Shown piece by piece: positions 2,604 through 56,069 of a stretch of DNA of 64,000 nt; position 1 is the first letter of the stretch; every line of letters begins with the position of its first letter. The stretch is from the NCBI GenBank assembly GCA_965113315.1, contig OZ220366.1. One strand, given 5' to 3'. Both the position numbers and the translations under genes were made by a program. The stretch is from Podarcis vaucheri. Lineage: Eukaryota. The notes below the pieces were generated by a model. It saw only the letters and a program-made list of their open reading frames with translations, did no database searches and had not been told where the DNA came from.

Positions 2604-4162
2604 ACTGAATCAATGGAAGACCTATTCACAAAGCATCTAGAAAATAATAAACATGTTCAAATATGGCATAGAATAGTGACACCATGATTAGGGCTGCAAT
2701 TTGGCCTAGTTATGACTGATTTCTTCCATATTGGCATAGCAAACTGCAAGTTTATGTTTATAGCCATCCATGCCTTGTCCTTTAAAGTGTCTGATAATAC
2801 CAGTTAAACTGGACTTAAACGATTATTGGACTAAGAATCTACATCTCATTCAGTGTGATCATTTCTCCGGCAGCATTTTACAACCCAGGTTCAACATACA
2901 GTATTGGCAAGAAAGCACACTAACCATCAAACCCAGGGGTTGTTTATTTGATGGGATTTTAATTATTCCAGCCTCACTAAAGCTCCCCTGTGCTTCAGCT
3001 TAAAGAGTGCTGAATCAGTACAGGCAAAATGCTTTGATATTATTTGCAGCTGAGGAAATAGCTACAACTTTCCGGATTATTCATTGTGCATTGCTTTTGA
3101 TGAATAAAAAATATTTATTCGAGTGGCAAAAAGTGTAGCAGGACTTTCTGTTGCACTTTAAAAGTCTTATATCACTACAGAACCACAGTGTAAGTTACTG
3201 GTATATTTTAAACTAATATTTAGCTGTATTTAAGGCTGTGAACTGGTCACTGCTGTGTAGCCATGATAAAATGGAGGCTGAGATGAAGCTGGATAGTTAG
3301 AAAGAATGAGAAAAGAGAGCATTGACTGCACACTTAATATGTTTCTCACACATTACTTAGCAGCAAGCCTGCTAGTGTACATTTGATAGGGAGCCATGGC
3401 AAATCCTGAATACTTGATGTATGTTCCTGTATGATATACGTGTTTGCATTTCATTCACACTAAACATTTTTAGGCAAACACCTGAAAAAACTAATGGGCG
3501 AATCAGCCTTCAAACTGGGAGAGGGGCTAAAGTGGAAATAGAACATCTCCAAGGAGGTCTTTGAATTGTGGCAGGTAGATGCTTTTAAGAAAGAGCATTT
3601 CTGAACTAGCACTTTGTTTGCCCTCCCTGGCATATCGACAATGTGTAGTTTATGGGTTGCTGAACAGGTTAACGCTGCAGGGATGCAACCATTTCCAGCT
3701 TTATGATAGGGGTACATTTATGATGACACATGTCGCGAGAAACATACACTTGCCTAACACATGCAAAGGTGTGTGTGTGTGTTCATATGTGTATTCTGTA
3801 CAATTTGTGTGTCTGTTTGCTAGGATCCTGAGATCAAGATGGGGGACTGAACCAAAATTTGCATGATTGTTCTTAAGAAGAAGCAGGTTTGCATCTATGT
3901 TTGGACACAATTGGTTGCCATTTTGCATCAATACGGTGGACTCTAGCTTTCAAAACTGCATTGATTTTAATTGGTGATTGCAAAACTGCACTGATTTTTT
4001 TAAAATAGTTTATTTGAATTCCCAAGCTATGCCAGGTATGAGACTGATAGCAAAAATATCAAACTGGGCTAATGTAAGTCCTTCTTACTGATGGTATCTG
4101 TTTCAGTACACAACGCAGCAAGCTCAGAAATAGCATACCGAAGCTGATTTTTTAATTTCAAA

Positions 4163-5552: not shown

Positions 5553-5915
5553 GAAGGTAAAGGTAAAGGTACCCCTGCCTGTACGGGCCAGTCGTGTCCG
5601 ACTCTAGGGTTGCATGCTCATCTCGCTCTAGAGGCCGTGAGCCGGCGCCATCCAAAGACTCTTCCAGGTCACGTGGCCAGCGTGACGAAGCTGCAGCCCG
5701 CGAGCCAGCACCAGCACAGCACACGGAAACGCCGTTTATCTTCCCGCTATAAAGCAGTCCCTATTTATCTACTTGCACTTTTAAGGGTGCTTTCGAACTG
5801 CTAGGTGGGCAGGAGCTGGGACCGAACGACGGGAGCTCACCCCGCTGCAGGGATTCGAACCGCCAACCATACGATCGGCAAGTCCTAGGCACTGAGGTTT
5901 TACCCACTACACAGC
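5553..5915 (-). mobile_element. Sauria SINE (Squam1)
   Basis: (ACCTTT)n tail, B box GGTTCGAATCCC on the minus strand, 12-bp TSD GTGTAGTTACTT (5541-5552, 5916-5927). Confidence 0.93.
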
Positions 5916-9613: not shown

Positions 9614-10707
9614 TTTACAGTTGCTGGGAAAGGCTCCATTATTAGCTGGAAATATTATTTTTTAACCAAAACCCACCCCAAACCCCTATCCTAAAGAAGT
9701 CCAGTTCTTCAATTTCAAGATGTGGGAAAATTAAGTATGCTAAGCTCTTTCTGGCGTGAATAAAGAATTATAGAGAAGTTAACAAGTGTTGGCAATATTA
9801 TGTAGGGCCAAATTTCATTTCATTTATTTTTAGTCAACTTATAGACCACTTACAATCTTCTCTATCTATATATACTATCTATCTATATATAAATAAATAT
9901 ATTTTTATATATATTTATTTATCACTGCGTATACATGCATCACTGGGAAATAAACAATTACATCTGTTCAAACCTGGATATGCTGGGAGAGAGGTGGAAA
10001 GTCCTAGTGGCTCGTGAGCCACACACATCCCCCTCCCTTGAGCCAAAAGAGGATGTCAGTCTGGAAATAGAAGGTTTAAAGAGCTTGAAAAAGGAACTTT
10101 TAGGCTCTAAAATGGCACCTGAGAGCTCTTTCTGCTGCTGCACTACCTTGCTCAACAGCTGTATTGCAGTGGGCTCAATTACACTGTTCCCTGCCCTTTC
10201 TGGTGATCTGGAGGTAAAGGTACAGTATAAAGGGGGGGGGAAGAGTACAGTACTGTATTTTTCATGCCCTTTTGCCCTAGTTCTCCATTCTGATGAGCCT
10301 CCCCACTTGCACAAATTTGCTTATGCAAACTGGGGCCCTGAACGTAACCCCCACAGGTGTCACCTGTATATAAAATCTTGAAGCAGTTTGCAATAAGGAT
10401 TCAAAAGATTCTAAAAGAGAAGGAAATTCTCTAAAACATACAACAAAAACTACAGATATGCAGATGCTATAAATAACCAGCAGATAAAATAATCAAAAAT
10501 TAAAATAAGATAACATACTCTGAACATAGAATACTAAAAAATATTAAGTAAATAATTGGCAGCCTTTTGCTGCGACTTGTAGGTGACTAATAGAAACTGA
10601 ACCTGAAAATCCACCCACTTATGTCTTTGGTTACTGTTACAGGTTAGTAGGGAAAATTAAAAAAATTCTTCCAGTAGCACCTTAAAGACCAACTAAGTTA
10701 GTTCTTG

Positions 10708-10745
10708 GTATGAGCTTTCGTGTGCATGCACACTTCTTCAGATAC
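10708..10745 (-). ncRNA. Minimal type I hammerhead ribozyme motif (PLE-associated)
   Basis: Minus strand GTAT-CTGAAGA-A-GTGTGCATGCACAC-GAAA-GC-TC^ATAC: CUGANGA and GAAA core, stem I GUAU/AUAC, palindromic stem II, minimal stem III. Confidence 0.8.
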
Positions 10746-11031: not shown

Positions 11032-11068
11032 TATCTGAAGAAGTGTGCATGCACACGAAAGCTCATAC
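11032..11068 (+). ncRNA. Minimal type I hammerhead ribozyme motif (PLE-associated)
   Basis: TAT-CTGAAGA-A-GTGTGCATGCACAC-GAAAGCTC-ATAC; core identical to 10708-10745, stem I shortened by the junction. Confidence 0.75.
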
Positions 11069-12828
11069 CAAGAACTAACTTAGTTGGTCTTTAAGGTGCT
11101 ACTGGAAGGAATTTTTTTATTTTGACTATGGCAGACCAACACGGCTACCTATCTGTAGGTTAATAGGGAAACAGGGATCCTCTAGATACCTGGGCACCAG
11201 ATCTTCCCCTCCAGATTTTTGGATGCTGGGGCTTAATCAGAGCTGATGGGCTGAGCTTGCTTAGAGGGGCAGGTGGAGAGATGATGAGCCTGCCATTAAT
11301 CCATCTACAAGACAAAAGACCCTACAGGTAACCAAGGGGGAGGTTGCCAGGGCAATGTTGGTGTGCTGTCGCAAAGGAAAACTGTCACTTTTCAAAGGGG
11401 GGGGGGAGAAAGGGAGGAGTTGCTTGGCAAAAGGTTTTCTGGGAAGGAGAAGCAGGAAATAGGTTGAACTCCATGCGGTGGCTGGAGGTCAGAACCATCT
11501 TGGCAGGTTGGGACAGAAGCATAGAGAAGTTCAGAATGCTTTGGAAATCCAGTTCTGCACTACTCAAACCCCTCTTGAGATGCAAATGCTGTAAATTCTG
11601 GTCTCCCTCCCTTGAAAACCTCTGGTGTAAATATGTGTAAAATTAACCATATTTCTTTAAACGTGGTCCTGGGTAAGCACCTGGAACTCCCTGCAATCTT
11701 GCTGTGGATATCATTAGGGCTTTGAGGGTCTTGTGATGTGCCATGCTGTCCAGTCCCAATTATGTTTCTTGGGATGGAAATCACATTGAGGTTAATAGGA
11801 CTTACTTTCATGTGTGTTTGGGTAGGCTTGCTGTTTTAATTGATTTTGTATGTTGACAAGGAAACCTTGATAGCTACTTCTTATGAATGTAAACCTTCAG
11901 GCATTCACAAGATTATTTACGTACTGTGGAATAATATCAGATACAATAAAAATAAGGAGAAACAGTATTTCTCCTCTGCCCCCTTTCTTTTTGTCAGAGG
12001 ATAGCATGGTGACCCGAGTTCAAATTCCGTACTCAAGGGGGCAAGCTCTCACTTTGTGTCTACGCTGCTAAATAAATTATCTTAGCAATTTATGTAGAGG
12101 TTACATTTCCAAGGGATCTTCTGGAAATGTACAGTTTTTATTTTTTTTAAATGGGGAAGTGAAACTGGCCAAATTGTAAAGGATTATATTTATTCAATTC
12201 TTTTGCCTGCAAAGAGCAGGCAAGAGAGTAGAACAAATATAACAAAGATATCCTGCTGTATTCTCTCCTCGCCGTTGGTGTTTTTCTCTCTTGACCTACT
12301 TGCTGCATGAGAAAGGTTTGTAAATATTTAAATACTTCTCTTAAGTATTTCTCCTGCATGAATTATGTGTATGAAACTAAAGTAGAACTGCAGCTGCCAA
12401 TTAGAATGCGGTGGAGCTGTAGTTGCTGATGTGCCAATGTAATGATTTCTCCCCGCTCCCCCCCCCCCCGCTCCCAGCTACAGCTATGCAGCTCTAGTTC
12501 TGAATATCAGAATCAACACTGCGGCTCTGTGGTTATTGCCAGATTTGGTTCAGTGAATTTTTGAACGTTGCTAAATGCAGATTTTGCTCTCTTCTTCATT
12601 TACTAATGGCTTATTAACTTCCTGTTTTTACTGTCTAAGAAAACATCAAAATGTCCACACAGGCGACTGCCCTTCAGGTTCAAAACTAACTTCTGGATAG
12701 GTCAGCAAATTACTACGGGTCAGAAGTCGTAATTCCTTCATTCCTCCAATCATTTATAGCCCACCTTTCAACCTGATAGGCCCACCAGGCATCGTACAAT
12801 AATAAAACAACTGTAAAACATGTACAAA

Positions 12829-14367: not shown

Positions 14368-14723
14368 GGGACGTGGGTGGCGCTGTGGGTTAAACCACAG
14401 AGCCTTGGGCTTGCCGATCAGAAGGTCGGCGGTTCGAATCCCCGCAATGGGGTGAGCTCCCGTTGCTCCGTCTCTGCTCCTGCCAACCTAGCAGTTTGAA
14501 AGCACGTCAAAGTGCAAGTAGATAAATAGGTACCGCTCTGGAGGGAAGGTAAACGGCATTTCCGTGTGCTGCTCTGGTTTTCCAGAAGTGGCTTAGTCAT
14601 GCTGGCCACATGACCCAGAAGCTGTACGCTGGCTACCTCGGCCAATAAAGCGAGATGAGCGCCGCAACCCCAGAGTCGGCCACGACTGGACCTAATGGTC
14701 AGGGGTCCCTTTACCTTTACCTT
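14368..14723 (+). mobile_element. Full-length Sauria SINE
   Basis: GGGACGTGGGTGGCGCTGTGG head, GGTTCGAATCCC B box, (ACCTTT)n tail, 15-bp TSD TATGGTGCAATAGAG (14352-14366, 14724-14738). Inserted into an older tRNA-derived SINE remnant that runs to ~14800. Confidence 0.95.
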
Positions 14724-16823
14724 TATGGTGCAATAGAGCATTGAATTAGAACCTGGGAAACCAAGGTTCAAATTCCCACTCAGCCATGAAGCTTACTGGA
14801 TGAAGAAAACAGGAGGAAAAAGGTTTAAAACAGAAACCATCAACAATATAGTAAATAATTATTTGTCCTTTGAAACTGCCACCACGGCTGACATTATCTG
14901 CAGGGAGAAGAAACAATGCAATTATAATTTTGTAATGTCACAGTGGAATGACTGAACAAGCAAATATTCCTCTTTCAAGCTGTTCTGTATTCTGTAAAGA
15001 AGTAAACCCCTGCCCTGTCCTTGGATTTGAGTTGTACATACGTACCTATAGTTTACAGGGATGGTGATTTCATAAAACTGTAGTTTGTTTTACAGAACAG
15101 TCTTGACCCCAGATTTGCAGGCTGAAGGGGGTTAGGATGAGAACATTGTCCGGGAGGGAAGTTTCAGGAAAAAATCCCCCCCCCCCGTAATCTTTTTACT
15201 TCGTCCACCAGCCCTTCACATCTCTATACCTTCAAGATCTAAGGTTGCTTCAGAATACTGAATGTGTGTGTGTTTGTGTGGACATCGGTTATCATGCTGC
15301 CTGGATAATGGCCTTTTCAAGAGAAACATATTTGGGCAGATCTTAAACTGCATGATTATCTGCAACTGTCCAATTAAAGCCTTTTTCCTTCTTAGAAGGC
15401 TGATTAATCTCACTGACCTCAGCCATCTCTTTCTAATTAGGAAGCTAGAAGAAAGCTAAAGCTACTGTAAAAGTTTCATGTGATCCTGTTGAATTGACAG
15501 CATGGCTTCCCAATAAGAATGGCTAATAATGGAATTTGTAACAGTGTTTACAATAAAGCTGTTCTCCTTAGGAAAACCACAGAAGGAAAGTATGCTTGAT
15601 TCATCTAAATAAAAGGCTTTGAAAGGTTTTATTGGTTGCAAAAGGATGGAAAAAGAATGGGATGGAATTCTTTGTTTTTGGATAGCTTTCTATTGCTAAA
15701 TGTAGAAAAGTGTGTCATGCATGGAAACGTGTGATTATGGCTAGAGATAGGGGTGACAAGTTACATTTGGGTCGAATCAGGTCACAACTTTATTGACCAG
15801 AGATGTAAGAGGAAATCATGGCTTTGCTAAAGCTACCACCCCCACCCCACCCCCGTGAACAACAGGAAGGGGGATGCACATCCCTGAGGGCAGTTATTAT
15901 TGGCATATAATTGATCACATTAATCTCTACTCTTACAGTCCATGCATATTTATTTTATTGGGGATTTCAGCTCCCCCCCCATTTCAGCTTCAATATTCTC
16001 CCTTTCATTTTTTATTTGTGTATTTCTTTACCACGATTTCCTTCCTTTTATTTGGTGGCAGTCTGTACTGCAATCCATAATTTTCTTGCTTTCCTCCAGC
16101 AGCTAAAAGGGGTCTTAGCAGTGCAAGATCATTGCTGTGAAAGGAAAAAAATGCCCAAGAATTGCTGTCAATTTCACGCTGTCTCAGAACTGCATTTTAT
16201 CAGAAAGAGGCCAATTCTATTGGGCTTATAGCTTCCTAAAGCCCAGTTAAAAACCACTGGTAAAACTGGATAGTTTTAGTTTCCTCCCTACCCATCCCAC
16301 CTCAGATACACATGCCACCATTTTAATTTTCAGGTGGGTAATTGGGGAGATGATGTGCATATCTCTAAGGCTGTGTTCACCCTATTCCCTTTTGCTCCCT
16401 TTATTTTTTCATTCTATCTTGTCTGCCATTTGTACCCCTTTATTGTTGCGCTGCTTTTTTTGTAGAATGCAAATTCAGAGGGCAATGTGGGAATAATAAG
16501 GGCAAGAAGCATGGTAAGGAACAAATGACTGATAGGCTTAATTTCTGTTGAGCAGAGCTACTAGCCAGCTAAGATACCTGCTCAGAAGTAGAGGTACCAA
16601 AAGGGAGTTATGCTGTAGTGCTATAATGCTTTATGCAAGTTTGGGTTGTGCTGAGACAGCTTGTTCCACAGTGGATCCAGTGCTCCCAGCAACAGCAAAA
16701 ATATTTAAGTATTTCCCATGTGGCCTTGTTGCTGTCCCAGACACTTATGCTGAAGAAAGCCCTTGTCTAGATGCACCTTTAGTGCCTCTTCAATGAAACA
16801 CTGACATTTCCACTTAAAAATAC

Positions 16824-20995: not shown

Positions 20996-21301
20996 AAGGG
21001 TAAAGGGACAAACGACTCTTGGGTTGCGGTGCTCATCTCACCGGCATACAGCTTCCGGGTCATGTGGCCAGCATGACTAAGCCACTTCTGGCGAACCAGA
21101 GCAGCGCATGGAAACGCCGTTTACCTTCCCGCCGAAGCGGTACCTTTTTATCTACTTGGACTTTGAAGTGCTTTCGAACTGCTAGGTTGGCAGGAGCTGG
21201 GATGGAGCAACGGGAGCTCACCGCATCATGGGGATTCGAACCGCTGACCTTCTGATCGGCAAGCCCTAGGCTCTGTGGTTTAGACCACAGTGCCACCTGC
21301 G
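20996..21301 (-). mobile_element. Sauria SINE with internal deletions
   Basis: Reverse complement of the 14368 copy; 11-bp TSD TTTGATGTTTA (20985-20995, 21302-21312). Confidence 0.92.
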
Positions 21302-36000: not shown

Positions 36001-36200
36001 TACAATGTAAACAATAAAACAATTTCCCTGCAGGAGGAAACACATAAAACAGTTTAATAATGTACACAAGAGCCAGCATAAAATCATTTTTGAAAACAGT
36101 AAAAGTCAAAATGCCATTTGAGACCATTTACAAGCAACCCCTCCATACACAGCCTTTTCCTATATGTTTTAGGAGCGTACATTGCTAAACTATGTAAGTT

Positions 36201-36344
36201 ACAGATAGGTAGCCGTGTTGGTCTGCCATGGTCAAAATAAAAAAATTCCTTCCATCTGAAGAAGTGTGCATGCACACGAAAGCTCATACCAAGAACTAAC
36301 TTAGTTGGTCTTTAAGGTGCTACTGGAAGGAATTTTTTTTATTT
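36201..36344. mobile_element. Miniature Penelope-like insertion (inverted tail + pLTR)
   Basis: Same sequence as the 11033-11156 arm, split into an inverted tail and a forward pLTR; perfect 15-bp TSD TAAACTATGTAAGTT (36186-36200, 36345-36359). Confidence 0.88.
36254..36289 (+). ncRNA. Minimal type I hammerhead ribozyme motif (PLE-associated)
   Basis: AT-CTGAAGA-A-GTGTGCATGCACAC-GAAAGCTC-ATAC; stem I largely lost at the junction. Confidence 0.7.
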
Positions 36345-43550: not shown

Positions 43551-43910
43551 AAAGGTATTATGGTAAAGGATCCCTGACAGTTAAGTGCAGTTGCAAACGA
43601 CTCTGGGGTTGCGGCGCTCATCTCACTTTACTGGCTGAGGGAGCCAATGTTTGTCTGTAGACAGTTTTTCCAGGTCATGTGGCCAGCATGACTAAGCCGC
43701 TTCTGGCAAAACCAGAGCAGCACACGGAAACACTGTTTACCTTCCCACCAGAGCGGTACCTATTTATCTACTTGCACTTTGACGTGCTTTTGAACTGCTA
43801 GGTTGGCAGGAGCTGGGACAGAGCAACAGGAGCTCACCCCGTCGCAGGGATTCAAACTGCTGACTTTCCAATTGGCAAGCCCAAGAGGTTCAGTGGTTTA
43901 GACCACAGCG
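43551..43910 (-). mobile_element. Sauria SINE (older, CpG-decayed)
   Basis: Reverse complement of the 14368 copy over ~350 bp; no clear TSD. Confidence 0.9.
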
Positions 43911-45001
43911 GTGGTAATGAAATTATATATTGCACAGCTCTCCTTTAGTAGAATTATTGCAATGACACACAACCTTTCGGTTTTCGTGCCACCAGTAATA
44001 CATTTGGGAACATTAGTAACTATAGCTTAATATTATTAGTTAAGTTAAACTTTATTTGTTAAGGCTGCAGTCCAATATGCACCTACTAAGCACTAAGACC
44101 CATTGAATCAAGTAGGATGTCCTTCTGAGTAAGCATACATAGGATTGTTCTGAAATTCTTTGAAATCATTGGGCACAATCTAGCCAAAGTAAACAAAACA
44201 TTATAAGACCTTCAGTGAGAGAGGGTTTTTTTTAAAGCACATGCTTAATGTTCTCCAGTTGAAATTAATGGGGCATTACAAAGTGCTTAACTTTGGCTGG
44301 ATGGGTTCCATTATTAGTCATAACTGGAATATGTGCATCTGGATGAGGGCAGTAATTATTTAATTTTATTTTGTTAGCCAAAAGCTTCCATCAGTGAGAA
44401 CACAGCACTGAAAGACCGACATCTGTTCTCTAAGGCACAAATAAGGTTATGTGTTCAGGAAATGTAGTTATGGTCAAGGCTAGGGAAATATATTCAGCTT
44501 GGGTTTTGTTTTTTTACTCTTGAGTTTTGCTGCCTATTCTTTGTCTAACAAAAGACCCTAAAGTTTCTTCTAGAACCAAGGACCATGCGTTCACTTCTAC
44601 CCTAACCTTCAGTTGTACTACTTCAGAACACAGAATTTATTTTGCATTTATGTTCAAAGTGCTCCACAGTGATAAATTCAAGACTCCTCGCAATAGTCTT
44701 ATAAAGGTAGGCTGGTGTTATCATCCCCATTATGAGACACAGAGGCTGAGAGGATTGTACACAATTTAAGGGCCTCTGGCCGACTGGCCAGCTATCTCTT
44801 CCTTTGGCTTCCTTTGATTAACTCTGTTGGAACCAAAAGAAAACAGTGCTGAGATGAGGAGGAATAATGCCTAATTAGTGTTTAATTCTGACATTTAAAA
44901 CCAGTTTTTGTTTCAACTTCTGCCTTTTCATGAATACACAGCACTTTAGAAATAGGTGGCAGTGGGCTTTTTCCTTCTTTTTTTCACCATCAGTCACTAA
45001 A

Positions 45002-45803
45002 GCGTGTTCTCACTAGCAGAGAGCACGTGTTGCGGTTGGGGAGCAGGCCACCATCATGACTAGGCAAATTTGGGGAACCCAAGCTGGTAAAGGGTTAATT
45101 GGGTTGCTGGGGATTTTTGTATGTTGCTAATTTGGAGGAGGGGTCAGAGTCTATAAATTGAGGAGTTAGACTAGGGGACGTCCTCTTGGCCGTTTTGCAT
45201 CGGATCACCCGCCCCCCTCCCTTTTTATAGGGTGGTTCTTGGGTTCATTTGACCTTGCTATGCCTGTCATGGGGTTGTTCGCCTTTGAGCGGGGGCCTGG
45301 TAGGAATTTTGCCATTTGGCTGATTGGCTGTTGCCATTTGGTTTTTGCCTACTGCGTAGCAAATCGTCACAACTTGTAAGGTTGGCGGTTAGGCATTGGT
45401 TAAATTGGTGCTTGGAGGGGTAAGGTGCCTATCCCTCCAAATGATGCGAATGGGAATTCCGTTAAAGGAATCCAGGGGCTTGCCATTCTTTCGTCCTTGT
45501 CCGTGGTGCCGGGCTTGGGCCGTGCAAGCCCCACCGGAACATGAGGGTGAGAGGTGTTGGACTGAATTCCCAGCCTCATTTCTCCCCAATACTTGTTTCC
45601 CACGCTGGCTTCCGGTGGTGCCCGGAAGTTTCAGCTCTGTCCTCGGGGGCAAGGACAGAAAGTCATAACCAATGCCTAAGCAACCACTCACATTTTCTGT
45701 ATTTGAATAAAGTTGTGGCCAAAATTTATGCCAAAAACCTTAAACAAAAATTAACGTGTGCTGTGTGAATTTTTGGGGGGTGGCACTGCGGAACTCAACA
45801 CGC
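45002..45803 (+). mobile_element. ~800-bp non-coding repeat; probable solo terminal repeat or non-autonomous derivative of a tyrosine-recombinase (DIRS/Ngaro-like) retroelement
   Basis: Homologous end-to-end to 53140-54313; termini GCGTGTT/AACACGC flanked by A-runs rather than a TSD; TATAAA ~45152, AATAAA ~45706. The family assignment is an inference. Confidence 0.6.
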
Positions 45804-47473
45804 AACCAGCGATACAACAAGCAGAAAGATTTTCATTTAGCTGCTGTTAACCACAACGCCATCCTACGTAACAAAAATAAACCCAATGCTAAGTAATGGG
45901 ATAATAAAAAACAACAATTGCTGAAGTTAACAGATAAATATCATTAGTATACAAAGGAATAAAGCTGTACACAGGCATCAAGAGTACCATTAAGCTGTTT
46001 CACTTCCACACCAGAAGAAGACATTTCCATTAGAGAGCTGATGAGTGCTTTTTCAAGAGCTACATTGCTTTTTGCAAAATGTCATTGAACACTAATATCT
46101 TTGAGCAGATTTATCTCACAGTTTTAAATTTGAAATATAGCAGTACAATTACTAGATTTTTTTTAAAAAACCAAACATTTAGACTATATTAAGTTTAACC
46201 CCACCCCATCCAACCCTTTCTCAGAAAACTTTAGTGCTTCCCAGCCTCAAGATGCCTAAACCACAAAGGACACATTTAATGAAACTTGCAAGTAAATAAG
46301 AAAAAAATTGCCCTTCTTGTAGCCTGACAATTGCCACCGGCAATAAGGTCACGACATGTAACCTTTGAAGAACTTGAAAAAACATTAATATAATATAATG
46401 ATTCCATCTTCTTAATAGAAATAATTAAGCTGAACTTGGTCTTTTCTTGTTAACTTTGTAGACATGGCTTGTAGGACAACTATTCAGTTTGGAGCACTGA
46501 CACCCATTCCCACATTGTAATTTACTAGATAAAATATTATGATTAAGAGTTTTGCATACACTTTGCATTTAGGTGGCAGACTCCAGGCTCTGCCACTGTT
46601 GTTTTGACACCATTTGTGTAATTCCTAGTTTGATGTGAGAATATTTTGGAGCTCACCACAATATAATTGTGATCCCTCTCTACTGATGAATATCAGTGAA
46701 AATGCAGCGAAAATTAAAGGAAAGGGCCTCAGCACGGTTTGGGTGGATAAGGTCCTAAGTAATAACCAGGAAAGCCCTACCTCTACCCAACAGCCAATAA
46801 ACAGCTCAAAACAAACAGTTAATTTAAAGGGACTGTATACCTGGTTGGTAGGGCACATGTATTTAAGTTCCACATTCAATCTGCTTTAGGGTGCACCAGG
46901 GCAAGAAAGGAGGCCAGCTTAGAAGGCTGCTGCCAGTAGATGCCCTTTATTTATTTTCCATTTATTCACTGCCCTTTTTTTTGGCAAGGCACTCAATGCA
47001 GCTCCCATCCCTTGCAGTAATGGTTTGCAATTTAATAGACTCAATACAAAAAGGGGAAAGTGATGGAGAGGGGAAAGGAAATCCAAGGATATTGGCTACT
47101 GCATTAGGGGTGGAGCCAAATGGTGGTTGTTCACCAGATTCCTCATATTCCTTACCAGATTCCTTATATTCTATACTTAAAAGGGTATAATGCCATGAAG
47201 AGGAACTACACACACTCTCAACTGTATGTTAGGCTTTGCCACTCAAACCTAAAGAACATTAAAATCAGGAAAGGGAGTGTCAGTGTTCCACAAAGCCCAC
47301 CTTGCTTTCTGTTCCAGGTCCATTTCTGCAAGAGCCCATTTGTAAAAGGGCGTGTAATATTACAAACAAAAATGTTGCCTGTTTCTTCTGCTTAGAGTTT
47401 TGCCCTGTTAGCTTAGGGCACAGAGGCTCATTTAATTTCATTGTACACAGCTTGTACAATGACAATAAAGGTA

Positions 47474-51212: not shown

Positions 51213-53139
51213 GTCGTCTTCACTGATTTCCATGGGTTTTCTCTGTGATTGTGAGTGGAAGAGGGATCTGTTAGTCCCCATAAATATTTTGGCCCCAGAA
51301 ACTCTTGTTGACACCTCTAGTGTAACGGTGATCTGTGATGATCAGAACATGCAAGGAGAAATGAACGGAAACAGATGTTCCTTATATGTTTATTTTTTTA
51401 TGGTTAGTCACTGTGAGAACAGAATGCTGGACTAGATGGGTCATTGGCCGGATCCAGCAGGTTCTTTAAATGTTCTTAAGATACCCAGGTCCCAACCTGT
51501 TAAATGTTAACACTGGCACATTGAATTGAGCCTGGAAATTAATTGACAGCTACCACAGATCATGCAAAACTGGTAAGATGAAACTAAACTGCTCATCAGC
51601 ACCCCTCAACAACATTTTGCACTAGTTAATGTTTGAATGCTATTTTAGGGCAGCCCCATATAGAACATGTTACAGTAGTCCAGTCTTGAGCTCACTATGA
51701 TGTGAATCCAGAAAGGTGTTAGCTAGGGAAGAAGGCACTTTTACTAAATAAGGAAGCAAGCCAGAAACACAGAGGTGTGTCATATGGAGTCATTAATTAG
51801 AGGTTGAAACATCTTACAGGAATAGGTACAGTTTAGATAAATAGTGACTTTGCATCTTGATGTCAGAAAGGGGGAGGCAAGGGCTATCAGTTTCAGGAGT
51901 GAACACAGGGAACTGCTGAGCTAAAGGAGAAGTTAGCAATGATCTGTGTCCTCAAGTAATCCCAACATTCAAAGCCTTTGAAGTGTGGGCTATGGTGTTC
52001 CTGTATCTGCAAAAGTTGCAGGCGGTCACTGTAAATTACTGTTTTCTAGACAAATGGAAAGGGCAATTCAGGCCATAAAAGCTTCATTTATGTATAGTGA
52101 GAAACTAGATTATCCCACTTCAGTATGATCTAAAAAAAAATCTTAAGAACAGTTTTGACTGGTTGTTATGTTGGTGTTAAAACTGGGCTCAATGCTTTAA
52201 TAAATTGAAGCCTGTAGATTAATCAACAGAGGCTTTCACCCATTGATCAGCCCTGGGCAATTTTAATCAGCAAGGTCAAATTAGAATGGGTGAAGCTGTG
52301 AATTAAGGGCATGGTTGTTTGTCTTTTGCAGCTCTGGTTTATTATTTTAATAGGGCACAGGGGAATTTCCATTAGCACTGAGTGGTACCTTTAGTCATTG
52401 TCTGTCATTTTACATGTCTTTCAGTATCTCAAAGACAAGCCTATACTGCAGTTTTGTACTTTAAAAAAAAAGTCTAGTTGATATATTGGTTAAAAGCTTA
52501 TTAATTGCCACAATGATTCTTAATTAGTTGACATAGGGAAGAAAAATCCCAAGAAAAAGCTTAATATAATGACACCTTGCACTGCAAAGAGTTGCTGCTG
52601 CCAGGCTTTCAATGGTCCCTTGACTCCTGGAGATTCAAGAAAGTAGGGAGAGATTTGTCCTATCACTGCAGTACTGTACTATTTAATTAAAGGTTATGTG
52701 TGTGAGCCATATGCACCAATGTGACCAGATAAAAGCCTGGTCTGCTGCAGGGATCTAATTTCTATTCTATCATCTTCAGTGGAACTATGTTTTCAGATAT
52801 ACCACAGCAGCCTTTATAATATGTTTCATGCACTCTTCTGCTAGAAGGGTCAAGCATACAGAAGACAGGTTATGTCTGCAAATGCCTACCTGCTTGGTTG
52901 CCTGAGGTGAATGAGGATCACCTCTCACCAAGAAGGTATGTAAACTCTCTATAAAATCATTTTCATCGCAGCCCTCTGCATACATTCCATTTTGCTCAAT
53001 GGGATTTTACTTCCACGTAAACTGAAGTTTGTATAGCCTTAGTTTCTGTAAGCCACAGATAACCACCATAGGCATGTGCGGCTAGCTAGGAGTGATGTTG
53101 GAGTATTTGTTCTCAAGTGAAATGGGGTATGTCTGGAAA

Positions 53140-54313
53140 GCGTGTTCTCATTAAAAGAGAGCATGTGTTGTGGTGGGGGCCAGCCAAGCCACCCCTCTGT
53201 TGCCAGGTGGCTTGGGATGGTTGGTCTTTGGCAGGGATTGGTAGTTTGAGTTGCTGGGGTAATTTTGATGTTGCTAATTTGGGGGAGGGAACAGAGGTTT
53301 TTTAAGCAGTGCACGAGGCTTTTCGCTTTCTCTTTCACTGCGTGCACCGGATCACCCGCCCACCCTCCCTTATTTTAGGTCTTGTGCGTTGACCTTGCTA
53401 TGCCTGTCATGGGGTCGTCTGCTGTTGGGGCAGGGGCCTGGTAGGAATTTTGTCCATCTGGCTGATTGGCTGGTGCCATTTGGTTTTTGCCTACTGCGTA
53501 GCAAATCGTCACAACTTGTAAGGTTGCGGTTAAAGGTAAAGGTAAAGGTACCCCTGCCCGAACGGGCCAGTCTTGACAGACTCTGGGGTTTGTGCGCCCA
53601 TCTCACTCAAGAGGCCGGGGGCCAGCGCTGTCCGGAGACACTTCCGGGTCACGTGGCCAGCGTGACAAAGCTGCATCTGGCGAGCCAGCGCAGCACACGG
53701 AACGCCGTTTACCTTCCCGCTGGTAAGCGGTACCTATTTATCTACTTGCACCCGGGGGTGCTTTCGAACTGCTAGGTTGGCAGGCGCTGGGACCGAGCAG
53801 CGGGAGCGCACCCCGCCGCGGGGATTCGAACCGCCGACCTTTCGATCGGCAAGCCCTAGGCGCTGAGGCTTTTACCCACAGCGCCACCCGCGTCCCTTTA
53901 AGGTTGCGGTTAGGCATTGGTTAAAAATTGGTTGGAGGAGGGGTAAGGATGGGCCTGCCCCTCCAATGCTGCTGCTGCAAGGGAATTCCGTTAAAGGAAT
54001 TCATGCTTTCGTCCCAGTCCCTGGAATTGGGTTTGGGCCGCATAAGCCCCTGGGAGCATGTGGGGAGAGGGCCTGTGGCGCAGCTCCAGTTTCTCCCCAA
54101 TATTGTTTCCCCTTACTGACTTTCGCTGGAATCCGGAAGTCAGTTCTGTCCACAGGCGGGGAGACAGATAATCGTAACCAATGCCTAAGCAACCACTCAC
54201 ATCCATGTATGTTAATAAAGTTGTGGCCAAAATTATGCCAAAAACCTTAAACAAAAGTTCTGTGTGATGTGTGTGCTATTTGGGGGGGGGGTGTCTTGGG
54301 GACCTCGACACGC
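53140..54313 (+). mobile_element. Second copy of the ~800-bp DIRS/Ngaro-like non-coding repeat, interrupted by a Sauria SINE
   Basis: AAA-GCGTGTTCTC start, GACACGC-AAA end, shared blocks with 45002-45803, AATAAAGTTGTGGCC at ~54214. Confidence 0.6.
53533..53896 (-). mobile_element. Young full-length Sauria SINE
   Basis: CpG-rich, GGGACGCGGGTGGCGCTGTGG head, 14-bp TSD TAAGGTTGCGGTTA (53519-53532, 53899-53912). Confidence 0.95.
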
Positions 54314-54702
54314 AAATGCAGGTAGCCATCTAAAGAGTTCCTGTTACTGTATAGATGCTCCATTTTGAACAACACAAAATAGATACTCCAGCCTGGCTTC
54401 AGACTCTGATGTGCATCTAAATATGCAAACACTTGAGCCAGATCTCATCTCATCTCTTGGAAAGTGAGAGATACACGGCCGCTCTAATAGCACCTACACC
54501 AAACTATTAACAGGAGCTCAAGAAATCTCTCCCATTAGCAAACACACAGATATTTAACGATGCTTGGGAAGCTTCAATCTGCGATAACAAAATAATTGTG
54601 ACATTAATACTGATCAACCACTTGTCTTCATGCGCAGCTCCATAGATTCATCACTGTGCTATTGTAATCTAATAATAGCCACTTATGCATTCCGATTCAA
54701 AG

Positions 54703-54948
54703 TTATAAATAGATCCCAGAGCGTAGGGGGAGAACGATGGTTCAGAACAGTCACACTCTCAAACACTTTTTAAAAAAGAAAAAAAAAGAAGCCAAAGAAA
54801 TGGCTCGAGATAGAAGGTGCTCCAGTAGTGCTGAAGTGGAAAATTTGTTACAGGCATGATAGATTAGATATCAAGGAAAAGGCTGCGGTATTAGACTACG
54901 TACTTGCAAGCTATTCTGAAGGGAGTAGGGGTGGTGATGGGAAGGAAT
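54703..54948 (+). repeat. ~245-bp local direct duplication, copy 1
   Basis: Near-identical to 55825-56069 (a few substitutions and A-run length changes). Confidence 0.95.
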
Positions 54949-55824: not shown

Positions 55825-56069
55825 TTATAAATAGATCCCAGAGCGTAGGGGGAGAACGATGGTTCAGAACAGTCACACTCTCAAACACTTTAAAAAAAAA
55901 AAGAAGAAGAAGCCAAAGAAATGGCTCGAGATAGAAGGTGCTCCAGTAGTGCTGAAGTGGAAAATTTGTTACAGGCATGATAGATTAGATATCAAGGAAA
56001 AGGCTGCGGTATTAGACTATGTACTTGCAAGCTATTCTGAATGGAGTAGGGGTAGTGATGGGAAGGAAT
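55825..56069 (+). repeat. ~245-bp local direct duplication, copy 2
   Basis: Near-identical to 54703-54948. Confidence 0.95.

Follow-up and report, generated by a model that had tools for sequence, protein, structure and literature searches.

Ngaro elements are tyrosine-recombinase (YR) retrotransposons, and the sections of PMC9210276 drawn on here describe a vertebrate Ngaro layout that includes an SGNH hydrolase open reading frame (ORF) after the YR. The corresponding sections of PMC8547959 describe a split direct-repeat layout, together with solo AB relics, in the Ngaro elements of Cafeteria. A different kind of system is the ENE, an RNA structure whose U-rich internal loop beside G-C pairs binds the poly(A) tail (PMC7583470, in the part consulted); an ENE has been shown to help the plant retrotransposon Evade (PMC12501189, likewise in part).

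The window that we analyzed is a stretch of 64,000 nucleotides from Podarcis vaucheri (assembly GCA_965113315.1, contig OZ220366.1), in which an earlier note, made from the letters alone, had described a conserved multi-helix RNA architecture inside an approximately 800-bp element present in two copies. We found that this element is the solo end-unit (A-C-B) of a Ngaro tyrosine-recombinase retrotransposon. The recognition of a solo split-repeat unit is new relative to the earlier note, as is the placement of its near-invariant block within a single-copy spacer, C.

Of 4,888 candidates from a genome search with copy 1, 40 were scored, and these gave 64 matches, 41 of which span the whole unit; the other 23 comprise its last 423 bases only and lie immediately 5' of a whole unit. 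The first 209-210 bases of the unit recur about 5.6-6.4 kb upstream in all 12 loci that were fetched, and each of these has the layout A1-internal-B1-A2-C-B2. Full elements have the order A1-gag-RT-YR-hydrolase-B1-A2-C-B2, with C as the sole terminal part that occurs once per full element. Four long overlapping frames are retained in two of the 12 (L039 and L040), where the RT and tyrosine recombinase ORFs sit in overlapping frames and match RVT_1 (E 1.4e-12 and 3.4e-12) and Phage_integrase (E 2.8e-6 and 6e-6); after the YR comes a weak match to Lipase_GDSL_2, a GDSL/SGNH hydrolase, that lies below Pfam's cut-off (E 0.002 and 0.0002). A Pfam search for RNase H and methyltransferase in the last 270 amino acids of ORF2 gave no match to any Pfam family at E <= 5. 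We also fetched 40 of 103 listed YR loci, whose families show 41-67% YR identity to L040; 21 carry both B1 and B2, 17 stop cleanly after B1, without A2-C-B2, and 2 are otherwise broken. Among 36 left ends, 26 read AAA, 4 ATA, 3 AGA and 3 something else, and flank duplication (n = 36) was absent in 27 cases, 2-3 nt long in 8 and 8 nt in 1. Layout, RT, YR, hydrolase and ends all fit Ngaro.

The 12 fetched loci represent the window's own family; the remaining 10 of them (L031-L038, L041 and L042) have near-identical repeats and no long gag, RT or YR frames, and these elements are likely a non-autonomous subfamily. In L041 (251-2297), and also in L022 and L028, the full element ends B1-A-C-B-A-C-B, the end-unit being in tandem duplicate. 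L003 contains two hydrolase-like segments in tandem; on its minus strand (2852-3805), a 317-aa frame adjoining the element resembles a class C GPCR transmembrane exon, and we take it to be that of a vomeronasal type 2 receptor.

Copy 1 occupies 44999-45805 on the plus strand and matches the 3' end of full elements at 99% identity. It opens with repeat A (210 bp, 44999-45208), which is the same as A1 at the 5' end of full elements, starts with the AAA junction triplet and contains a TATA box at 45152-45157, a putative promoter, followed at 45182 by a pyrimidine-rich CCTCTT that would serve as the start site. Spacer C (174 bp, 45209-45382) comes next and is the most conserved part; a (CCCN)4 tract (45208-45221), which reads as a G-quadruplex-type motif on the minus strand, begins exactly at the A/C boundary. 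Repeat B (423 bp, 45383-45805) is the same as B1 and has the 3' end CGCAA. Copy 2 (53137-54315, plus strand) belongs to an older subfamily and is interrupted at the C/B border by a dispersed repeat of 366 bp (53533-53898, plus strand) with a 14-bp target duplication (53519-53532 and 53899-53912), which parts the 90-nt block from the long stem. Both window copies are inert relics, most likely born of A1 x A2 recombination.

We take the repeat inserted into copy 2 to be a SINE (Sauria SINE). Further copies of this SINE-like repeat lie elsewhere in the window at 5607-5901, 21014-21282 and 43599-43898, with an inverted one at 14371-14726. Another repeat, arranged in direct and inverted pairs and containing GGAAGGAATTTT, is found at 10648-10744, 11032-11128 and 36195-36344 of the window and in L258; it is presumably the end of a Penelope-like element, and in L258 it follows a GIY-YIG endonuclease-like frame. 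The window also holds a direct duplication of about 250 bp (54703-54948 and 55825-56069), with copies 94-96% identical and 1.1 kb apart.

All five structural items that the earlier note had named are present in the sequence. The 14-bp long-range stem (45389-45679, plus strand) pairs 45389-45402 with 45666-45679, is extended by 45380-45384/45681-45685 and encloses 263 nt; its counterpart in copy 2 (53910-53923 with 54175-54188) encloses 251 nt. Within it lie hairpin 2 (45412-45440, plus strand), formed by GGAGGGG at 45414-45420 and CCCTCC at 45433-45438, and hairpin 3, ATTCC-GTTAAA-GGAAT, at 45456-45471 on the same strand and at 53985-54000 in copy 2. The nearly invariant block of about 90 nt is likewise as described, with 87 of 89 aligned bases identical between the copies, compared with 73% identity in A and 81% in B. 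Hairpin 4, the 5' hairpin of A, is indeed found at 45003-45027 (plus strand), but it falls outside the span claimed for the architecture and upstream of the TATA box, and it is thus not part of a TATA-to-AATAAA transcript. Where B1 meets A2, and nowhere else, a longer stem-loop is predicted with hairpin 4 at its tip; in it, the final bases of B would pair about 30 nt into A, with one two-sided change in L210. Separately, a GAGC/GCTC-type hairpin with a variable loop lies just 5' of B1 (L031:8370-8402 and equivalents elsewhere); both of its sides are changed in the L231 family, and folding recovers it in part.

The solo unit as a whole folds with z = -4.8 relative to 20 shuffles. C folds as a three-way junction (45250-45369, plus strand) composed of P1 (45250-45263 with 45354-45369), P2 (45272-45298) and P3 (45299-45353). 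P3, the candidate ENE-like part, has a lower stem GGTAGG/CCTACT that is paired in 100% of cells across 36 sequences, a U-rich internal loop at 45305-45311 and 45342-45347, and an upper stem. The loop consists of A-A/G plus U3-5 opposite U3-7 plus (C)G, and two invariant G-C pairs, in the position of an ENE's A-minor stem, adjoin it in all 36 sequences. When 176 copies were examined and 162 scored, 159 of the latter had at least three U on both loop strands; the commonest loops had 4/5 U (61 copies), 5/6 U (28) and 3/4 U (21). Many U tracts are no more than 3-4 long, and one family has a C-G pair in place of U-U. In its U-rich loop and adjoining G-C pairs, the P3 loop looks like an ENE, for which poly(A) binding would be predicted. 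The U-loop motif also has matches in L262, L264 and L269; the sequences flanking these three fail to align with those of the other copies. A site resembling AATAAAGTTG lies about 290 nt downstream in L262, which may represent an additional and very remote family.

The earlier note had argued that the two copies keep their pairings despite divergence elsewhere. Between the two window copies alone this cannot be seen, as their stems are nearly invariant and show no covariation, but divergent families do covary. We compared 37 natural copies picked from 109 distinct ones over C and B, and 36 segments, picked from 44 anchored ones and reaching deeper families, over C. The long stem is paired in 97.9% of cells and has two-sided changes at 4 of 13 pairs (37 sequences), and the C module is paired in 91.4% with two-sided changes at 12 of 31 (36 sequences); slid controls drop to 33-54% pairing. 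In motif-anchored counts, made on 51 of 54 cluster representatives, one long-stem position displays four pair types (TA 35, CG 4, GC 3 and AT 1 of 51), and hairpin 3 keeps its loop (GTTAAA in 31 and ATTAAA in 11 of 51) with two of its stem pairs changed on both sides. Hairpin 2 is kept in position only, its sequence varying by family (76% paired in the alignment).

We assessed these patterns in aggregate with a tree-aware test, in which columns were simulated independently on the tree in 1000 runs. For the C module, the paired fraction was 0.94 against a null of 0.79 (0/1000) and the number of double-change pair types was 13 against 5.2 (1/1000); for the long stem, the values were 0.98 against 0.90 (0/1000) and 4 against 1.3 (18/1000). 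No individual pair reached E < 0.05 with the tree null among 9,591 or 56,953 column pairs, because there are only a handful of independent lineages. RNAalifold alone finds P1b, P2 and the lower P3 stem. Stems are more conserved than loops, as the earlier note had anticipated, by the modest margin of 0.82 for paired versus 0.73 for unpaired columns. Cells with G-U outnumber those with A-C on the plus strand by 132 to 29 in C and by 23 to 7 in B, counted as cells and not as independent events, and this excess favors the sense RNA; single-sequence folding does not tell the strands apart (z -3.7 and -3.9 for the two strands). Given the pairing kept across families and the aggregate test, the comparisons bear out the idea of a selected RNA structure and support an architecture that is real and sense-strand.

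Several other identities were considered. The suspicion that the structure is undescribed in Rfam held up: nothing reached gathering score, whether in the window, in the surroundings of the finding or in five loci from other families, and the four chance matches had E of 1.7-5.9, the best of them (1.7) around the finding. The same searches gave no sign of a known ribozyme family, which the earlier note had entertained. Its likening of the block to a CR1 3' untranslated region found no support in this genome, either. The motif in question has 29 genomic matches against 0 for a control, nearly all of them old Ngaro solos by their flanks, and 18 of 19 matches to a second, related motif carry two or more Ngaro landmarks; in this genome, the upstream ORFs are RT, YR and hydrolase, with no APE-RT context, the parent being a Ngaro YR retrotransposon. 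A retrozyme, Penelope element or TRIM, hinted at by partial tandem copies, was dropped because A1 and the YR ORF were found. An Sm site (AAUUUUG) is contradicted by several families that lack the G, and a palindromic junction, AACACGC-AAA-GCGTGTT, is absent from the L201, L210 and L234 families. A tRNA primer site at B's TGG was also set aside: few bases fit what we take to be the ends of tRNAs, and copy 2's subfamily lacks the TGG.

Beyond the junction itself, C offers a second link to the 3' end of the RNA. The docking strand of copy 1, GTCACAACTT (45366-45375, plus strand), is complementary to 45710-45719, directly past the poly(A) hexamer and within AATAAAGTTGTGGCC (45706-45720, plus strand), which comprises that hexamer and the near-invariant partner of the docking strand. 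Put in terms of the motifs, GTCACAACT at C's 3' end is complementary to AGTTGTGGC directly after AATAA. Both partners are near-invariant in all families seen, old decayed ones included, and the docking helix, being invariant, is therefore unable to show covariation. Among 10 B2 folds that end at +32, nine predict it with p >= 0.89; once 160 nt of downstream RNA are added, just 6 of 10 do so with p >= 0.5; the same 10-element folds give the docking strand no consistent partner in B1. The 5' half of the strand competes with P1a.

The explanation that we favor, with a confidence that stops somewhat short of even, is a cis-acting 3'-end module that folds the poly(A) site onto the U-rich ENE-like loop and protects the tail of the full-length RNA. 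Transcription would start in A1 and end at the B2 hexamer, the 14-bp stem would fold away the roughly 260-nt interior of B2, and C's tail is predicted to pair with the bases just past AATAAA. The poly(A) tail would thereby lie by the P3 loop and form U-A-U triples of the sort found in known ENEs; the KSHV ENE has five such triples, and P3 may well give fewer. As C lies ahead of B2 alone, an RNA terminating prematurely in B1 would not contain the module. Only the replication-competent RNA would be stabilized, with its 3' end held for the element's RT or Gag, and this full-length RNA would be the only form able to rebuild both ends. The earlier note's guess of a stability or RT-binding/priming element was of the right class.

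A fold on the full-length RNA could alternatively be a packaging or export signal, bound by Gag or a host export factor, with no poly(A) triple helix. The GTTAAA-type loop of hairpin 3 is retained despite changes in the stem, a behavior typical of protein-bound loops, and many bases in the C alignment are invariant in sequence itself, beyond what pairing requires; on the other hand, such a signal alone leaves the paired U tracts and the complementarity past AATAAA unexplained, and the binding is hypothetical, so that we regard this reading as possible but doubtful. Full-length RNA also has to cross an identical hexamer in B1, which could suggest that the fold governs poly(A) choice by hiding the B1 signal and letting transcription run to B2. 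Predicted hexamer access is alike at the two sites, however (0.31-0.64 at B1 and 0.32-0.71 at B2 in 10 elements), and with occlusion at B1 rejected on this ground we consider such control highly improbable. That the pairings are mere left-overs of shared ancestry, with no selection on structure, would agree with the lack of any single significant pair, but the tree-aware aggregate tests, the four pair types at one long-stem position and the poor pairing of the slid controls make this scarcely credible. A further alternative is that solos, and A2, drive an independent structured non-coding RNA of about 550 nt or spread as non-autonomous mini-elements. Every solo has the TATA, the fold and AATAAA; genome-wide, exact matches to the 22-nt core of C number 1,698 against 194 exact B|A junctions, and 6 of the 11 best copies (at least 98%) are solos. 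Against this, RNA reads from 6-12% of each of four runs amounted to 76-98 per run, almost all from diverged copies and only 0-1 per run at >= 99% likeness, and within this portion of the runs they showed no joints and no pile-ups at starts or ends, leaving the ends undefined; such reads neither demonstrate nor rule out the stand-alone polyadenylated RNA of about 550 nt expected by the earlier note, and no RNA record stood among the listed holders of the sequence. Solo AB repeats are, moreover, known as relics (PMC8547959, in the sections consulted), and the 17 of 40 YR loci that end at B1 (L194, L198, L204, L205, L207, L209, L211, L213, L214, L220, L222, L224, L226, L228, L229, L231 and L232) can be read as the reciprocal B1 x B2 product that ordinary recombination predicts, or else as the result of copying from B1. 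We therefore rate an independent RNA or mini-element as very unlikely.

The boldest alternative is that the fold is mainly an origin of reverse transcription, with the long stem as a self-priming helix. In all 32 elements compared, the long stem begins 3-8 nt after B's 5' edge, and in 24 of 26 the (CCCN)4 tract coincides with the 3' edge of A (offset 0/-1). B1 equals B2 over the full length in 67 element pairs (three aligned only in part), with 69 differences in 21,059 bases 5' of the hexamer (0.33%) and 29 in 6,645 bases 3' of it (0.44%); just 4 differences are common to two elements, though families differ by up to 40%. The likeness along the whole length indicates that B is rebuilt from one template. 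Under a self-priming origin, a cut after the 3' strand of the stem would let RT copy C-A2-B1-ORFs and never B2, the plus strand would run from B1's edge until halted by the minus-strand G-quadruplex at the end of A2, and the B-A unit would be duplicated from one template every cycle. What makes the idea appealing is that, for DIRS-1, the order's primer is described as unknown (PMC7192593, in the part consulted). Yet priming near the poly(A) end with a plus-strand B-A splint gives the same homogenization without self-priming, and both the cut site and its nuclease are purely hypothetical. The (CCCN)4 tract, present in 114 of 167 copies versus 27 of 16,700 shuffles, is missing from the other 53, is imperfect in at least two families and could be an Sp1/KLF site. 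At 30 B|A junction loci (L073-L102), C follows 29 of the junctions and precedes none, and no locus is permuted, against expectation for a two-junction double-stranded circle; a circle usable at either junction was accordingly rejected, and one with two equal junctions does not account for the absence of permuted loci. We hold a reverse-transcription origin to be an unlikely main role for the fold. A similarly low probability attaches to the composite proposal that Ngaro elements carry an RNA replication origin made of a self-priming B2 stem, positioned by an ENE-like C, and a minus-strand G-quadruplex stop at the edge of A; if true, such an origin would explain both the rebuilding of split repeats and a tRNA-free start of reverse transcription in YR retrotransposons. 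An ENE role and a replication-origin role are mutually compatible.

How, then, does the lizard element compare with described systems? With the known Ngaro elements, which belong to the DIRS order (Xenopus DIRS-53_XT; solo AB in Cafeteria), it shares the A1-ORFs-B1-A2-B2 split direct repeats (PMC9210276 and PMC8547959, in the sections consulted), gag-like, RT, YR and SGNH-type ORFs, solo AB relics and the lack of target duplication. It differs from them in its single-copy spacer C of 165-175 bp between A2 and B2, which holds the most conserved structure; no RNA fold, docking helix or boundary motif is described in those sections of the two accounts. Our literature search returned no RNA structure for Ngaro repeats and no relevant report of a lizard Ngaro, and sequence strings searched in papers had no relevant match. 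Nor did it return an ENE in a DIRS or vertebrate element, although the primary ENE survey, represented here via reviews, could list animal or DIRS ENEs.

With ENEs (KSHV PAN; Evade/Copia93, PMC12501189; PMC7583470; PMC13541005, all in part), the element shares a stem-loop with a U-rich internal loop beside G-C pairs, placed ahead of the poly(A) site in the non-coding 3' region of a retroelement RNA with few introns. Unlike the ENEs in these sources, P3 has only 3-5 U on the 5' strand and sits inside a three-way junction, and the long-range stem and docking helix are predicted to bring its loop to the 3' end. The host element here is a vertebrate YR retrotransposon, whereas the consulted part of the ENE review lists plants, fungi, slime mould and stickleback retroviruses. 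As in DIRS-1 (PMC7192593, in part), the end junction has an internal copy from which the ends are restored, and a junction trinucleotide (here AAA/AAN) marks integration; the lizard repeats are direct, not inverted, and both of their edges coincide with structural motifs. That DIRS-order RT priming, stated as unknown in the same part of PMC7192593, becomes testable on RNAs of about 170-550 nt.

This genome offers several young families in which a conserved stem and a G4-type tract coincide exactly with the repeat edges and an ENE-like loop lies between the two. In the self-priming of Tf1-type LTR retrotransposons, a long RNA-RNA helix forms at the repeat boundary and a cut could give the primer; the lizard helix lies near the 3' end, and its cut is hypothetical. 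If the P3 loop binds poly(A), a recombinase retrotransposon of a vertebrate would join the elements that have tail protection of the ENE type, and its docking design would be new. The element is of a known kind, and, if binding holds, its 3' end represents a new variant of the ENE-type design.
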